Source: Candidatus Woesearchaeota archaeon (lineage in GTDB: Archaea > Nanobdellota > Nanobdellia > Woesearchaeales > UBA9642). Taken from it: 52,630 nucleotides of DNA. Every line of letters starts with the position of its first letter. The first letter of the stretch is position 1. Positions 2,395 through 36,330 of this stretch are shown piece by piece. The notes under the pieces were generated by a model. It did no database searches and was not told the DNA's origin. It saw nothing but the letters and a program-made list of their open reading frames with translations. The translations under genes were made by a program, and so were the position numbers. Location: NCBI GenBank assembly GCA_038884715.1, contig JAWABG010000003.1:41304-93933 (forward strand), read 5' to 3'.

Positions 2395-3035
2395 TAAATA
2401 GTGACCTCCTCCCCGCACTAAAGTGCGGGGCTTCCGGTGAAGCAGTCTAGGGAAGTTTGGTGGATGTCCATCTGATTTTTTATGTAATTGTCAAATATAT
2501 CAACGGTATTGAATCCAACGCTACTTGCGTAAGCGCCAGGGCTGAAAAAGTGCCCTCTTAGATACCTCAATCTGAATTTTGGCTGTTTCCTGAAAAGCTG
2601 GAAGCTTAGGTTACCCTTAAGAAGTTGCAATGCTTTGATTTGGCTCATGCTTGTAGGAGCTTCAACACTCATATAGATATGTTCTGGCATCACAAAAAGT
2701 TCCCTGATTGTCATATTGTGCCTTTGCGCAGTTTCACACAATATTTCCTTGCAAAGCTTTTTATACTTTCCCTGCTTAAACATCTCGTATCTGTATTTTG
2801 TGCACCATTCAAGATGGTGCACGTTGACGCCGACTTTGTGCGCATAATGTTTGATTTCAAGTTTTGACATACTGCTCGCCTCCGGCGAGTAGAGCTCACG
2901 CTAACTTGGGAAAGTTGGTGCGTGGCGCAAAAAAAATTTTTCGTTCGCCACGCATTTTATTGTTATAAGAATAGAAAAATGTATTGCTATTCATCCCTCG
3001 ACCTAAAGGCCGGAGATTTCTGGCTCTACGAGTTT
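2395..3035 (-). mobile_element. IS200/IS605-family insertion sequence, IS200 type (tnpA only, no tnpB); boundaries approximate
   Basis: A Y1 transposase ORF flanked by GC-rich hairpins that stand out from the AT-rich background: CCCCGCAC-TAAA-GTGCGGGG (2411-2430), CTCGCC-TCC-GGCGAG (2875-2889), TGCGTGGCG...CGCCACGCA (2919-2954), GCCGGA-GATT-TCTGGC (3009-3024). Subterminal hairpins are the hallmark of this IS family. The segment is visibly more GC-rich than its neighbours. Confidence 0.6.
2418..2870 (-). CDS. tnpA: IS200/IS605 family Y1 (HUH) transposase TnpA
   Basis: Typical about 150-aa TnpA: HUH motif in VNVHHLEWCTKYRY, conserved MPEHIYMSV, and a C-terminal tyrosine region (GHFFSPGAYASSVG...DNYIKNQ). 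Confidence 0.85.
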   Translation of the reverse strand: MSKLEIKHYAHKVGVNVHHLEWCTKYRYEMFKQGKYKKLCKEILCETAQRHNMTIRELFVMPEHIYMSVEAPTSMSQIKALQLLKGNLSFQLFRKQPKFRLRYLRGHFFSPGAYASSVGFNTVDIFDNYIKNQMDIHQTSLDCFTGSPAL

Positions 3036-14054: not shown

Positions 14055-15335
14055 ATGGACCTAAACTATATTAATCTTAAATACAAACCATCAAAAACAG
14101 ACTTGATTGCTGAATACTTAACTGAACCAAATAACTGCTCTATAGAAGAGGCTGCCGAGAACATTGCAAAAGAGTCAAGCATTGGAACATGGACAGAATT
14201 ATCAACAATAAATAAAAATATTGCTAAAAGGCTTAAGCCAAATGTATTTTATATAAACAAAAAGCAGAACTTAATTAAGATAGCATATCCATATGAGTTA
14301 TTTGAGTTTGGAAATATGCCCCAGATTTTAAGCTCAATAGGTGGAAATATATTTGGAATGAAGATTATTAAAACATTAAGGCTTGAAGATATTCAGTTTC
14401 CAAAAATCATGATGAATCATTTTAAAGGACCAAAATTCGGGATAAAGGGAATAAGAAAAATTACAAAAACAAAAAAAAGGCCATTAATTGGGACAATTAT
14501 TAAGCCAAAACTAGGACTTAATGCGAAGGAACACGCGCAATGTGCATTTAATGCGTGGGTAGGAGGAATTGATATTGTGAAGGATGATGAAAACCTGACA
14601 AGTATGACATTCAATAATTTTGAAAAAAGAATAACAGAAACTATAAAATTAAAGGAAAAGGCTGAAAAAATGACAGGAGAAAAAAAAATCTATATGCCAA
14701 ATATTACAGCAGAAACAGAGACAATGAAAAAAAGGCTTAAATATGTTTACGATTCTGGAAATGAATATATTATGATGGATATACTAACTGCGGGAATGTC
14801 TGGACTTCAAACAGTAAGAAGCATAATAGAAGACTATCCGTTAGTAATACATGCTCATCGTGCAGGCCATGCAGCCTTGACAAGAAATTCGAAGCACGGA
14901 ATCTCTATGTTATCTATTGCAAAAATTGCTAGATTAATAGGTGTTGACCAATTACACATAGGAACAGCGGATGTAGGTAAAATGGAAGGCTCAGATTTTG
15001 AAACACAGGAAATTGAAGATGAAATAGAACAAAAAATAATAAGAAAAAAAGGACATATTCTAGAGCAAGATTGGCATAACATCAAGCCAGTATTTGCAGT
15101 TGCTAGTGGGGGCTTACATCCTGGAGGACTACCACTTATTATAAAACGTTTAGGATATAACATTGTTTGCCAAATGGGTGGTGGTGTACATGGCCATCCA
15201 AATGGAACTCTTGCAGGAGCAAAAGCCGCAAGACAAGCACTCGAAGCTGTGATGAAAGGAAAGAAATTAGAAGATTATGCTCAAAATCATATTGAATTAA
15301 TGCTCGCAATAAAAAAGTGGGGCATAAAAGAATAA
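14055..15335 (+). CDS. rbcL: Form III ribulose-1,5-bisphosphate carboxylase/oxygenase, large-subunit type
   Basis: RuBisCO catalytic blocks are intact: GTIIKPKLGL, GGIDIVKDDENL (carbamylated Lys context), VIHAHRAGHAA, ASGGLHPG, QMGGGVHGHPNG. There is no small-subunit gene, and the 426-aa length is typical of archaeal form III. Confidence 0.9.
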   Translation: MDLNYINLKYKPSKTDLIAEYLTEPNNCSIEEAAENIAKESSIGTWTELSTINKNIAKRLKPNVFYINKKQNLIKIAYPYELFEFGNMPQILSSIGGNIFGMKIIKTLRLEDIQFPKIMMNHFKGPKFGIKGIRKITKTKKRPLIGTIIKPKLGLNAKEHAQCAFNAWVGGIDIVKDDENLTSMTFNNFEKRITETIKLKEKAEKMTGEKKIYMPNITAETETMKKRLKYVYDSGNEYIMMDILTAGMSGLQTVRSIIEDYPLVIHAHRAGHAALTRNSKHGISMLSIAKIARLIGVDQLHIGTADVGKMEGSDFETQEIEDEIEQKIIRKKGHILEQDWHNIKPVFAVASGGLHPGGLPLIIKRLGYNIVCQMGGGVHGHPNGTLAGAKAARQALEAVMKGKKLEDYAQNHIELMLAIKKWGIKE

Positions 15336-15406
15336 CAAAAAAACAATAAAGATTAAAAAAAATTTAACCACTAAATATTTAAAGCGAGTATTCTTAACTT
15401 AATTAG

Positions 15407-16888
15407 ATGAAGCTCAAAGTTAGAAATATTCCAATAAGTACAGGAAACGCTAATATTGCTGTAATTAATGAGGAAGATGCAATAAAATTTGATCTATTTC
15501 CTGAAGACAGGATTAAGGTTATTTATGGAAAAAATGATGTTGTTGTATCACTTGATATAACAAAAGACAAATCAATGCCTCCAGGATACATATATGTTAT
15601 GGAAGAAGTTACAGAATATTTACATCTAAAAAATAATAAACTCGTGAAAATTGAAATGGCTCAAAAGCCAATCTCTACTAAGTATATCAGAAAAAAACTT
15701 TCAGGAGGAAAGCTAACAAAAAAAGAGATTTATACTATTATTAAAGATATTGTTAAAGGAAATCTAACAGATATTGAGCTTACTTATTTTGTTTCTGGTT
15801 GCTACAGTCATGAATTAAGTATTGATGAAATTACATATATGGTAAAAGCTTTAGTTGATACAGGTCAAAGATTTAGGCCGAGAAAAAAAATTGTAGTAGA
15901 CAAACATTGTATAGGTGGAGTTCCAAATAACAGGACGACAATTATTGTAGTACCAATAATTGCCGCATATGGATTATGTATCCCAAAAACTTCATCAAGA
16001 GCAATTACTAGTCCTGCAGGAACTGCAGACACTTTAGAAGTATTGACAAATGTAAATCTGGACATAAAAAAAATGTCAAAGGTTGTAAAAAAAACAAACG
16101 GGTGTTTAGCGTGGGGTGGCTCTCTTAATCTTGCACCTGCTGATGACAAGATCATAAGAATTGAATATCCTATTTTCATTGATACAACAGGTCTTTTAAT
16201 GTCTAGTGTGCTCGCAAAAAAATATTCGGTAAGTGCGACACATGTAATAATTGATATTCCATACGGACCCGGAGCAAAAGTCGAGACAAGGGTGAGGGCA
16301 TTAAAATTAAAAAAGTTATTTGAATTAATGGGAAGAAGACTGGGTATAAAAATTAGGGTTTTACTTACAGATGGAAGCCAGCCTGTAGGAAATGGTATTG
16401 GGCCATTACTTGAATGTATTGACTGCATTAAAGTCTTAAGAAACAAAAAAGACGCACCACAAGACCTAAAAGAAAAAAGCATTTATCTTGCAGGACAATT
16501 ATTGAATCTTAGTGGGGTAACAAAGAGTGAAAATGATGGAGAAAAGATTGCAAGAGATATACTTGAATCAGGCAGAGCCTACAAAAAATTCATAGAAATT
16601 ATAAAAGCTCAAGGAATGAAAAAAATGCCAAACAAAGCAAAACTAAAACTTGATTTTAGAGCTACAAAAACAGGAAAAATAAAAGAAATTCATAACTCTT
16701 CAATATCCAAGATTGCAAGACTCTGTGGCGCCCCAAAAACAAAAGAAGCAGGACTATACTTATACAAAAAAGTTGGAGATAGTGTAAAAAAAGGGGAAAA
16801 GATTATTACTCTTTATGCTAATAACAAAGATCTTTTAAGATATGCTAAACAAAAATATTTGAGAAATTTGCCAATAATTATTGAATAA
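15407..16888 (+). CDS. deoA: AMP phosphorylase (archaeal DeoA, thymidine phosphorylase family)
   Basis: Archaeal-type N-terminal domain (MKLKVRNIPISTGNANIAVINEEDA) followed by the glycosyl-transferase family 3 core (DKHCIGGVPNNRTT, TSSRAITSPAGTADTLE) and a C-terminal alpha/beta domain. It lies directly downstream of rbcL on the same strand. Confidence 0.85.
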   Translation: MKLKVRNIPISTGNANIAVINEEDAIKFDLFPEDRIKVIYGKNDVVVSLDITKDKSMPPGYIYVMEEVTEYLHLKNNKLVKIEMAQKPISTKYIRKKLSGGKLTKKEIYTIIKDIVKGNLTDIELTYFVSGCYSHELSIDEITYMVKALVDTGQRFRPRKKIVVDKHCIGGVPNNRTTIIVVPIIAAYGLCIPKTSSRAITSPAGTADTLEVLTNVNLDIKKMSKVVKKTNGCLAWGGSLNLAPADDKIIRIEYPIFIDTTGLLMSSVLAKKYSVSATHVIIDIPYGPGAKVETRVRALKLKKLFELMGRRLGIKIRVLLTDGSQPVGNGIGPLLECIDCIKVLRNKKDAPQDLKEKSIYLAGQLLNLSGVTKSENDGEKIARDILESGRAYKKFIEIIKAQGMKKMPNKAKLKLDFRATKTGKIKEIHNSSISKIARLCGAPKTKEAGLYLYKKVGDSVKKGEKIITLYANNKDLLRYAKQKYLRNLPIIIE

Positions 16889-17764: not shown

Positions 17765-18817
<1,053 letters not shown>

Positions 18818-19153
18818 TAAAATGTTTATTTTCTGCTATTATTATTTAGTCTACGATCAATTTTAATAATATTCGTTTTAATAATATTCTACTAATGACT
18901 ATTTTAATAAATTATTAAATTTATATGCAAACACAAAACAATATATAAAAAAATTCAACAAAATATATAAATCAAGACATCATCATTTTACCGTGATATT
19001 ATTATTACTATTATATCTACTATTATTATAATTATAATAATTATCATTATAAATATTTAACACAAATAAAGCATCGATACTGTTCATTATAGAACCTGAA
19101 TATTCCTTATATAATATTCCTTATATAATAGTAGTCTTTATTAGGGGGTGCTT

Positions 19154-19270
19154 ATGAGGTGTGCTGAGTGTAAAAAGCCAGTAACACAAATAGGAAATGG
19201 TATTTGGTATTGCAACAATTGTGATAAAATAATAATTGACAAGAAAGACCTTTATGAAGAAAAAAAATAA
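19154..19270 (+). CDS. Small zinc-ribbon protein (38 aa, below the ORF-track cutoff)
   Basis: Hand translation: MRCAECKKPVTQIGNGIWYCNNCDKIIIDKKDLYEEKK, with two CxxC pairs. AGGGGGTG lies 5 nt upstream of the ATG. Located between gap and pgk on the same strand. Confidence 0.45.
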   Translation: MRCAECKKPVTQIGNGIWYCNNCDKIIIDKKDLYEEKK

Positions 19271-19309
19271 GTTAATAGGTTAATTTAATAAAAATATAAG
19301 GGTGAAGAA

Positions 19310-20464
19310 ATGAAAACAATTAAGGATATAAACATTAATGGAAAGAAAGTTATACTTAGAGCAGGGTTTGATATGCCTCTTGATGAAAACGGCAATATTA
19401 CAGATGATTCAAGAATTAAAGAGACTATTCCAACTATAAAATATATTATCGAACGTGCAAGACAATTAATAATAATATCTCATATGGGTAGACCTGAAGG
19501 TAAGATTGTAGCTAAACTGAAAAATGATGTTGTAAAAAGAAAATTGGAGCAATTGCTCGGTGTGGAAGTCATAAAACTCGACTCGTGTATAAACATTACA
19601 ATTCCGAACGATAAAAAAATTATTTTGCTTGAAAACCTAAGGTTTCATATAGGTGAGGAAAAGAATGATCCTGAGTTTGCAAAAAAATTAGCAAGTTATG
19701 CGGATATTTATTGTAATGAAGCATTTAGTGTTATGCATAGGGATGCTGCGAGCATTACAGGCATAACAAGATATCTGCCCGGATGTGTAGGATTTTTGGT
19801 TGAAAAAGAGCTTAAATATCTTAATCTAGGTAATGCACAAAGGCCGATGGTGGCAATCTTAGGAGGTAGTAAGATAAGCACAAAACTTCCTGTCATAAAT
19901 GAACTCTTGAAGAAGACAGATTATTTGTTACTCGGCGGAGCAATGATTTTCACTTTTTACAAGGCAAAAGGATATGAAATTGGAAAAAGCCTTTATGAAA
20001 AAGATCAGCTTGATATGGCAAAACTGTTGTTAAATAATGAAAAACTTGTTCTTCCGACAGACGTTGTTGTTGCTAAAGAGATCAAGGAATATGCAGAGAA
20101 CAAAACAGTGAATGTTGAACAAATTCCACCAGAATACATAGGGCTCGATATTGGTGAAGAATCTGTGAAAAGATTCAGAAAAATCTTAGATAAAGCTAAA
20201 ACAATAGTGTGGAATGGCCCCTTAGGAAAGTTTGAAACAAAGCCATTTGACACAGCAACCAATGATATTGCTAGATATTTAACACAGCTAAATGCTATTG
20301 TAATAGTGGGCGGAGGAGAAACAGCTGATGCTATTGATAGGTTGGGTATTAAAGAAAAAATTACGCATGTAAGCACAGGTGGCGGCGCCAGTCTCGAAAT
20401 GTTAAGTGGTAAAGTTTTACCAGGTATAAAAGCACTTGAAGAAAATGAAATTGAATATTTTTAA
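19310..20464 (+). CDS. pgk: Phosphoglycerate kinase
   Basis: RAGFDMPL, IISHMGRPEG, LENLRFH, AILGGSKISTK, WNGPLGKFE, STGGGASLE. Confidence 0.9.
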   Translation: MKTIKDININGKKVILRAGFDMPLDENGNITDDSRIKETIPTIKYIIERARQLIIISHMGRPEGKIVAKLKNDVVKRKLEQLLGVEVIKLDSCINITIPNDKKIILLENLRFHIGEEKNDPEFAKKLASYADIYCNEAFSVMHRDAASITGITRYLPGCVGFLVEKELKYLNLGNAQRPMVAILGGSKISTKLPVINELLKKTDYLLLGGAMIFTFYKAKGYEIGKSLYEKDQLDMAKLLLNNEKLVLPTDVVVAKEIKEYAENKTVNVEQIPPEYIGLDIGEESVKRFRKILDKAKTIVWNGPLGKFETKPFDTATNDIARYLTQLNAIVIVGGGETADAIDRLGIKEKITHVSTGGGASLEMLSGKVLPGIKALEENEIEYF

Positions 20465-33996: not shown

Positions 33997-34107
33997 GGGG
34001 CGATAACTCAGACTGGGAGAGTGCACCGCTGAAGTGTGGAGAATTACATAACTGAGTTTTTCATCTCAAATCCGGTGATGTCCTGGGTTCAAATCCCAGT
34101 CGCCCCA
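33997..34107 (+). tRNA. tRNA-Phe(GAA) with a 37-nt intron at 37/38 (34035-34071)
   Basis: Acceptor GGGGCGA/TCGCCCC plus A73. D arm ACTC-AGACTGGGA-GAGT. Anticodon stem CACCG/CGGTG with loop CTGAAG|intron|C. Variable loop ATGTC. T arm CTGGG-TTCAAAT-CCCAG. No encoded CCA. The central BHB helix has only 3 of 4 pairs (CTGA/TCAA, one C-A mismatch), i.e. a relaxed motif. Confidence 0.9.
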
Positions 34108-35909: not shown

Positions 35910-36002
35910 TACGGTTGCCGGGAGTCGAACCCGGGCCACAAGCTCATTCCAGATTCTAGTAATCTGTGGGAAGCTCGGATCATACCGTTAGACCACAACC
36001 GT
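35910..36002 (-). tRNA. tRNA-Gly(CCC) with a 22-nt canonical intron (35945-35966)
   Basis: Minus strand: acceptor ACGGTTG/CAACCGT plus A73. D arm GTCT-AACGGTA-TGAT (G10-U25, as in many tRNA-Gly). Perfect BHB: CGAGC-TTCC-[CAC]-AGATT-ACTAG-AATCT-GGAA-[TGA]-GCTTG. Mature loop TTCCCAA. 4-nt variable loop TGGC. T arm CCGGG-TTCGACT-CCCGG. Confidence 0.85.
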
Positions 36003-36194
36003 GTAAAATATTAAAAAAACTAAATTATATTGGTATAAATAAATTATGGAAATAAATATGTTGTGAAAATAATAATTTGTTAGCTTGGCATATTAATTAT
36101 ATAACATTAATAACATTTAAGAGAAGAATAACAAAAAGAAGTTCTGAGTTAATCAAAACCTTTTTAATTACTCTATAACTCTTTAAATGATTAT

Positions 36195-36321
36195 GCGGGA
36201 GTGCCGGAGTGGTCAAATGGAATAATAAGCCAGACTTTACGGGCACGGTTCAGGTAACATAAAAATGTTTGAGTTGCCGTGTGGCTTAGTGCCTACGTGG
36301 GTTCAAGTCCTACCTCCCGCA
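36195..36321 (+). tRNA. tRNA-Leu(CAG) with two introns: D-loop (36217-36238) and 37/38 (36255-36275)
   Basis: Acceptor GCGGGAG/CTCCCGC plus A73. Class II variable arm TGGCTTAGTGCCTAC. T arm GTGGG-TTCAAGT-CCTAC. Anticodon BHB: CACGG-TTCA-[GGT]-AACAT-AAAA-ATGTT-TGAG-[TTG]-CCGTG. D-region BHB: GGTC-[AAA]-TGG...CCA-GACT-[TTA]-CGG. Removing both introns gives an 84-nt class II tRNA with D arm CCG-GAGTGGTCAAA-CGG. Confidence 0.85.
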
Positions 36322-36330
36322 TTTTTAAAA

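Follow-up and report, generated by a model that had tools for sequence, protein, structure and literature searches.

A tRNA-Leu(CAG) gene with two predicted introns, one of them in the D-loop, in a Woesearchaeota/Pacearchaeota-like archaeon

In a 52.6-kb stretch of archaeal DNA (52,630 nucleotides, the window hereafter) a tRNA-Leu(CAG) gene was recognized by sequence reading at positions 36195-36321 of the forward strand (127 nt); the sequence and its comparison with related genes indicate that it is interrupted by two introns, one in the D-loop and one at the usual anticodon-loop site. We consider it about 90% probable that this is a functional gene, from whose 127-nt precursor both segments would be spliced out as introns. 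It should be stressed that the D-loop intron could not be distinguished from a chance structure on the tRNA-Leu(CAG) sequence alone; with the relatives of the gene taken into account, however, it is clearly beyond chance. The source lineage is a Woesearchaeota/Pacearchaeota-like DPANN archaeon.

Results

Exons, introns and the predicted mature tRNA

The elements of the gene and of its immediate surroundings are as follows:

36160-36171 (+): A/T-rich box (CTTTTTAATTAC), 24-35 nt upstream of the gene
36195-36216 (+): exon 1; acceptor-stem 5' strand GCGGGAG, U8 G9, D-stem 5' strand CCG, D-loop to A21 (GAGTGGTCAA)
36217-36238 (+): predicted intron 1; 22 nt (ATGGAATAATAAGCCAGACTTT), in the D-loop, Sprinzl 21/22, relaxed HBh' motif
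36239-36254 (+): exon 2; A22, D-stem 3' strand CGG, G26, CACGG, loop U32 U33 C34 A35 G36 G37 (anticodon CAG)
36255-36275 (+): predicted intron 2; 21 nt (TAACATAAAAATGTTTGAGTT), canonical position 37/38, strict hBHBh' motif
36276-36321 (+): exon 3; G38, CCGTG, variable arm GGC-TTAGT-GCC, T arm GTGGG-TTCAAGT-CCTAC, CTCCCGC, A73
36322-36326 (+): TTTTT run immediately 3' of the discriminator base

The acceptor stem is formed by GCGGGAG (36195-36201) and CTCCCGC (36314-36320) with 7 bp, the discriminator A73 stands at 36321, and CCA is not encoded in exon 3 (36276-36321). Between the acceptor stem and the anticodon stem there are 42 nt (36202-36243), as had been counted previously, where about 20 would be expected. 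When 36217-36238 (22 nt) and 36255-36275 (21 nt) were excised in silico, the remaining 84-mer was called tRNA-Leu(CAG) by ARAGORN. Removal of the D insert alone gave the same tRNA with a 21-nt intron, and removal of the anticodon intron alone gave no call. The minimum free energy structure of the predicted mature 84-mer is a cloverleaf (-37.3 kcal/mol), and the ARAGORN cloverleaf has the features of a class II tRNA-Leu: a long variable arm, a 3-bp D stem, a GG-containing D-loop, A73 and a Leu anticodon. Thus the original prediction of a tRNA-Leu(CAG) carrying both a canonical and a non-canonical D-loop intron is supported by ARAGORN on the 84-mer, and also by the related genes described below. 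The three exons are colinear inside 127 nt, without a split or permuted arrangement. The TTTTT run is likely an archaeal transcription stop, a weak indication in a genome of 30% G+C, and the A/T-rich box is a possible, weak candidate for a TATA element, such boxes being common in an A+T-rich genome.

The unspliced gene escapes the standard programs. In default mode ARAGORN called no tRNA in the whole window, and the Rfam tRNA model at its gathering threshold had the tRNA-Phe gene at 33997-34107 as its sole match there, missing the tRNA-Leu gene. A permissive Rfam search scored the latter at 24.2 bits against a threshold of 29 bits, in a wrong register starting from 36203; since it stays below 29, this mis-registered alignment was rejected as a better alternative fold. 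Our own tRNA-Leu covariance model (R1) matched 36229-36321 at 34.4 bits, including an anticodon-loop insertion that it placed as 22 nt, and matched the D arm separately (36204-36220, 11 bits), leaving the true 5' acceptor strand unaligned. R1 did not bridge the 22-nt D-loop insert and offered no competing structure, and neither model aligns the whole unspliced gene as one piece. A better-scoring covariance-model fold of 36217-36238, which the original prediction had named among the findings that would speak against it, was therefore encountered with neither model.

Geometry of the two splicing motifs

The anticodon-loop insert folds as CACGG(36244-48)-TTCA-[GGT]-AACAT-AAAA-ATGTT-TGAG-[TTG]-CCGTG(36277-81). 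The helix/bulge geometry previously proposed for this region holds exactly: GGT and TTG are bulges of 3 nt each on opposite strands with a 4-bp helix between them, and our BHB scan classified the motif as strict hBHBh', with a central helix TTCA/TGAG of 4/4 pairs, an inner helix of 5 bp and an outer helix of 6 bp.

The D-loop insert reads GGTC(36211-14)-[AAA]-TGG...CCA hairpin-GACT(36233-36)-[TTA]-CGG. The central helix GGTC/GACT has 4/4 pairs (one G-U), the inner helix TGG/CCA has 3 bp, and the exon half of the central helix consists of G18 G19 U20 C20a. This insert had been credited with a bulge-helix-bulge of its own, and the two 3-nt bulges and the 4-bp helix are indeed present; an outer helix directly abutting the 3' bulge is, however, absent (length 0), which does not agree with the strict hBHBh' form. 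GAGU, which separates the D stem from the central helix, is unpaired, so that the predicted 3' splice site lies in a 4x3 internal loop. The motif belongs to the relaxed HBh' class and is not a full BHB.

The proposed shape is the minimum free energy structure of the isolated D region (-8.5 kcal/mol, 62% of the ensemble), and pairing in the D-intron helices reaches a probability of 0.92-0.97 in the ensemble computed for the whole precursor. In the single sequence the fold is not significant (z = -1.46; 17 of 200 shuffles fold as well), and the BHB scan showed that relaxed BHB-like motifs are frequent by chance in the three tRNA genes of the window.

Intron-less and intron-bearing relatives

GTDB genomes, one per species, were scanned with the 22-mer of exon 1, degenerate at 4 positions. 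As this query ended at the predicted 5' splice site, the sequence 3' of exon 1 was unconstrained. At least 119 tRNA-Leu stretches were found, nearly all in MAGs of Woese-, Pace- and Nanoarchaeota. The matches listed include 110 complete tRNA-Leu genes, 70 of which are intron-less (82-86 nt). All of these 70 genes of Woese-/Pacearchaeota encode the junction GGTCAA-ACGG, the same that is predicted after splicing, and all 70 encode the predicted spliced D arm, CCGGAGTGGTCAAACGG. The proposed cut after the second bulge nucleotide, taking out 36217-36238, and the claim that excision restores a class II D arm are both borne out by this agreement among the matches listed. The predicted mature tRNA-Leu(CAG) is identical at 76 of 84 positions to the intron-less genes of two genomes (L075 and L030), and its anticodon arm, GCACGGTTCAGGGCCGTG, recurs unchanged in an intron-less Leu(CAG) gene of a third (L053).

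In at least eight GTDB genomes (L012, L014, L019, L020, L027, L035, L065, L106) an insert, 21-85 nt long, occupies exactly the 21/22 site. Each of the eight parses as GGTC-[AAN]-hairpin-G(A/G)(C/T/A)(C/T)-[NNA]-CGG, and the central helix has 4/4 pairs in seven of them. Those relatives that have T, C or G as the last base of the bulge remove the one-base ambiguity caused by the run of A and fix the junction at GGTCAA^ACGG (Sprinzl 21/22).

A 52-nt D insert in L088 was rejected as an intron, being a partial tandem duplication of exon 1; on the minus strand (gene start 2003) the 52-nt duplication immediately precedes a tRNA-Leu(TAG) gene that is intact and has no intron. Position 42/43 gave five seeming inserts of 9 nt, likewise rejected as alignment artefacts in 84-nt genes. 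Inserts also occur elsewhere in related tRNA-Leu genes (L015, L035, L040, L032, L116, L090, L041, L048, L087, L104, L111): in the 5' strand of the anticodon stem (~29-31), in the T arm (~53-59) and in the variable arm, at positions taken from pairwise alignment and approximate outside the D-loop. The tRNA-Leu gene of L015 reaches 217 nt with up to about five inserts. At its gathering threshold the Rfam tRNA model reported the D-intron gene of L012 (42.6 bits) and left the intron-less 84-nt genes of L053 and L075 unreported, of which its speed filters may be the cause.

Conserved structure of the D-loop inserts in metagenomes

Metagenomes were scanned with a pattern that demanded an insert of at least 15 nt at the D-loop site and in which ACGGR as well as the 3' half of the central helix was fixed in advance. 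At least 120 stretches were recovered, with at least 101 distinct genes carrying D-loop inserts of 18-48 nt. ARAGORN recognized 72 of the 101 genes once the D insert had been taken out, and typed 52 as tRNA-Leu, among which every one of the six anticodons occurs; for the other 20, additional non-canonical introns have probably led to mistyping. An anticodon-loop intron is also present in 39 of the 101 genes listed.

Since the pattern itself forced parts of the other two helices, which makes these partly circular, the inner helix is the sole independent test. An inner helix of at least 3 bp next to the bulge was found in 70 of 101 genes, against 6.6 +/- 2.5 (at most 16) after shuffling. In a gapless alignment of 98 motif cores all five inner-helix pairs vary on both sides in a compensatory manner (the pair adjoining the bulge is U-A in 40, C-G in 39, A-U in 7 and G-C in 7), and the covariation score of 0.452 (0.169 shuffled) was reached in 0 of 500 shuffles. 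Paired cells over the whole structure, with the partly circular helices included, amount to 92.1%, against at most 44.6% when the partners are slid. The D-loop inserts of the GTDB and metagenome genes listed are mutually unrelated in sequence and range from 18 to 85 nt. Conserved structure with varying sequence and length is, at the level of comparative sequence analysis, the signature expected of a spliced BHB intron and not of a retained expansion or a random insertion.

D-loop introns of 42-48 nt form two hairpins (L065, L153, L155, L181, L185, L209, L220, L239, L243), and their middle is a near-copy of the exon junction, e.g. GGTCCAAAAC or AGTCCAAAAC; the arrangement resembles a splicing motif that has been duplicated or nested.

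Alternative readings of the locus

If the locus were a decaying pseudogene, the 22-nt D-loop segment would be a random insertion that happens to fold. The insignificant single-sequence thermodynamics of the D region, the chance occurrence of relaxed BHB-like motifs and the failure of standard tRNA finders to see the gene would all suit such a history. Nevertheless all four stems are intact, as are G18G19, the T-loop, A73 and the variable arm; the insert stands at the exact site and in the geometry of more than 100 related genes with unrelated insert sequences; and the invariant GGTCAA-ACGG junction would not be regained by excising a random insertion. We judge decay very improbable.

It might also be supposed that the 22 nt are retained, giving a mature tRNA whose D-loop is enlarged by an additional hairpin; this hairpin is predicted to be stable in the precursor. 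Against this, the inserts of the relatives differ in length (18-85 nt) with unconserved sequence, most relatives lack the insert altogether (70 of 110 are intron-less among the matches listed), and what is conserved, two 3-nt bulges and a 4-bp helix, is the very definition of an endonuclease cleavage site. The motif moreover sequesters G18G19, which the tRNA elbow requires. Retention is very unlikely on these grounds, and the reading as a spliced intron is preferred.

A regulatory function of the D-loop intron through an alternative precursor fold had been suggested from the pairing of TAAGCCA (36226-32) with TGGCTTA (36282-88) of the variable arm. The 7-nt complementarity is real, the two heptamers being exact reverse complements; the alternative fold itself did not stand. 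As many as 227 of 5000 shuffled introns have a 7-nt complement in some part of the gene, 91 related D-loop-intron genes are not enriched in complementarity to the variable arm (mean 3.89 nt against 3.81 shuffled), and the ensemble pair probability is about 0.01, to be compared with 0.92-0.97 for the BHB helices. The complementarity is accordingly regarded as fortuitous, and the alternative fold as very unlikely.

A different tRNA, the tRNA-Phe(AAA) with a 31-nt intron (36194-36322) that ARAGORN -i reports on the unspliced sequence, is next to impossible: its fold, which contains mismatches, takes D-intron sequence as the anticodon arm and makes no use of the perfect hBHBh' at 37/38, a proper tRNA-Phe(GAA) stands 2 kb away, and it is supported by no relative, whereas the Leu reading matches R1 and the 70 intron-less genes.

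Splicing endonuclease genes

A tRNA-intron-endonuclease domain was not found by Pfam in the ORFs of at least 70 aa of the 52.6-kb window, nor was endA found there by tblastn with the M. jannaschii EndA (100% identical to PDB 1a79), and the window has no rtcB gene. Among the approximately 240 tRNA-Leu loci the same query gave six matches in the list obtained:

L195: 2327-2833 (-), EndA gene
L010: 4408-4908, EndA gene
L055: 6274-6780, EndA gene
L110: 4924-5412, EndA gene
L067: 6346-6741 (-), EndA gene
L009: 1198-1593, EndA gene

The distance between EndA and tRNA-Leu was 3.5-4 kb in the three loci checked (L195, L010, L055); in L195 a tRNA-Leu with a D-loop intron and the EndA gene are about 4 kb apart. 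For ~1.6 Mb of sequence and genomes of roughly 1 Mb, one or two such cases were estimated by chance, against the six observed. The proximity may be a conserved linkage, one that is absent from the window.

Compared with the M. jannaschii alpha4 enzyme, the EndA ORFs of the related contigs (175-215 aa) are colinear and free of insertions, and the Tyr/His/Lys triad is retained in them. Both Pfam endonuclease domains are present in the two that were scanned (L195 and L010). The best PDB matches are the N. equitans alpha subunit (3iey_A) and the M. jannaschii alpha4 enzyme (1a79); six residues by which the N. equitans subunit is longer, located between its catalytic Tyr and His, are missing from the related-contig enzymes. 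Judged from their sequences, the related-contig enzymes appear to be single alpha-type units and not an epsilon2 fusion of the three-unit epsilon type. A broad-specificity endonuclease in the source genome is a reasonable and plausible assumption.

Discussion

The course of events that we propose starts with transcription of the tRNA-Leu(CAG) gene into a 127-nt precursor with two introns. EndA would cut after the second nucleotide of each 3-nt bulge (36216/17, 36238/39, 36254/55 and 36275/76), and an RtcB-type ligase would join the three exons; CCA, not being encoded, would be added after splicing. Since G18 G19 U20 C20a are held in the central helix of the D-loop motif, the D-loop/T-loop elbow would be blocked until the D-loop intron is out, and an enzyme acting on this motif, which has no outer helix, would have to accept a relaxed HBh' form as its substrate.

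The closest known case is the pre-tRNA-Glu(UUC) of M. kandleri, which has a canonical 37/38 intron together with a relaxed HBh' D-arm intron (Kaneta et al. 2018, PMC5829648); the mature tRNA was seen by RNA-seq and the D-arm intron was cut in vitro by EndA (PMC5829648). Cleavage of the D-arm intron was efficient with the loop-bearing (alpha-beta)2 EndA and poor with others (PMC5829648). In both genes an anticodon-loop intron of strict BHB form goes with a D-region intron of relaxed HBh' form, in the Leu gene as predicted from sequence. The M. kandleri insertion site appears to be about 1 nt from 21/22, an A21-to-G37 fragment being mentioned (PMC5829648). A further difference is that M. kandleri is a hyperthermophilic euryarchaeon and its tRNA-Glu is of class I, whereas the present gene encodes a class II tRNA-Leu in a DPANN archaeon of 30% G+C.

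Archaeal tRNA genes are well known to hold as many as three introns (PMC4090602, PMC4033280), and the multiple-intron tRNAs of Thermoproteales/Crenarchaeota have introns at non-canonical positions, 20/21, 22/23, 25/26 and 56/57 among them (Sugahara et al. 2007/2008; PMC4090602, PMC4033280). The present gene resembles these in having short BHB-type introns, HBh' included, at non-canonical sites such as the D arm, often in company with a canonical intron. The enzymes are different: Thermoproteales and Crenarchaeota have an (alpha-beta)2 EndA with a Crenarchaea-specific loop, whereas the EndA of the related DPANN contigs is of the single alpha type with no insertion relative to M. jannaschii.

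Within DPANN, ARMAN-1 and ARMAN-2 have disrupted tRNA genes and an epsilon2 EndA (PMC3239211), and an abundance of disrupted tRNAs is known from ARMAN and other DPANN genomes (PMC3239211, PMC5829648). ARMAN-1/-2 belong to the same superphylum as the present gene, but the related-contig EndA is not of their three-unit epsilon type. Alpha4-type EndAs have been noted in DPANN lineages with many disrupted tRNAs (Kaneta et al., PMC5829648); the survey of disrupted tRNAs covers one Pacearchaeota and one Woesearchaeota genome (PMC5829648). Our literature search found no description of a recurrent tRNA-Leu 21/22 site in Woese-/Pacearchaeota. The two-intron tRNA-Leu(CAG) extends the known archaeal pattern, and the gene itself leaves the knowledge of archaeal tRNA splicing unchanged.

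A practical consequence should be emphasized. Standard tools miss the present gene; Woese-/Pacearchaeota genomes will therefore appear short of tRNA-Leu isoacceptors, and this apparent absence distorts completeness estimates and the inference of codon reassignment in an abundant uncultured group. Furthermore, the at least 101 examples of the 21/22 site make up a natural set of relaxed HBh' substrates for the compact EndA of the related contigs, a set that bears on how DPANN enzymes cut non-canonical introns.

We also advance, as a speculation on which we would not bet even odds, that the tRNA-Leu 21/22 intron is lineage-wide in Woese-/Pacearchaeota, is cut there by a single-unit alpha-type EndA without the insertions to which the cutting of relaxed motifs has hitherto been attributed, and possibly acts as an elbow checkpoint. 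Under this proposal the presence of the 21/22 intron in all six Leu isoacceptors would mean that it is either old or repeatedly re-inserted, and, since the motif locks G18G19 in its central helix, the D-loop intron could be a point at which folding or processing of the tRNA elbow is checked. If this were true, an alpha-type EndA lacking insertions would be credited with the cutting of relaxed motifs, which would be a further, undescribed route to broad specificity.

Other features of the window and of related contigs

Two more tRNA genes stand within 2.3 kb of the tRNA-Leu gene:

33997-34107 (+): tRNA-Phe(GAA), 37-nt intron at 37/38; 50.7 bits; in the tRNA cluster
35910-36002 (-): tRNA-Gly(CCC), 22-nt intron (35945-35966) at 37/38, strict hBHBh'; 47.3 bits; in the tRNA cluster

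The central helix of the tRNA-Phe(GAA) intron has 3 pairs and a C-A mismatch, i.e. a relaxed motif. Introns are thus present in all three tRNA genes of the window, each of them missed by ARAGORN in default mode, and a scan of the window for T arms with acceptor stems, aimed at hidden tRNAs, returned the three known genes only. The nearest homologue of the Obg-like GTPase of the window is 89% identical in amino acids (L001) and the rest are at about 70%; the named ones come from Woesearchaeota, Nanoarchaeota and Nanoarchaeia, and the source was accordingly placed among Woese-/Pacearchaeota-like DPANN archaea. An exact copy of the GTPase sequence was not on record. The tRNA cluster upstream of this GTPase is not kept in L001 or in L002-L004.

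DPANN-type tRNA-Leu genes were also met on contigs deposited under other names: Candidatus Nomurabacteria (a CPR bacterium) or "bacterium" for L012 (MFUO01000018.1), L006 and L036 (DAIQOR01), and "uncultured Methanosarcinales archaeon" for many further loci. L012 carries the BHB D-loop intron. The bins or taxonomic labels of these contigs are probably wrong.

The window, with a G+C content of about 30%, encodes replication and translation proteins of archaeal type (an RFC large subunit, an XPD helicase, AlaRS and the RNase P protein Rpr2), as well as an IS200/IS605-type Y1 transposase (TnpA) ORF at 2418-2870 (-) (Pfam Y1_Tnp, E = 2e-22). A form III-like RuBisCO large subunit adjoins an AMP-phosphorylase-like gene (Glycos_transf_3) at 14055-16888 (+), RuBisCO and AMP phosphorylase being a nucleotide-salvage pair typical of DPANN archaea, and GAPDH and PGK follow this pair at 17825-20464.
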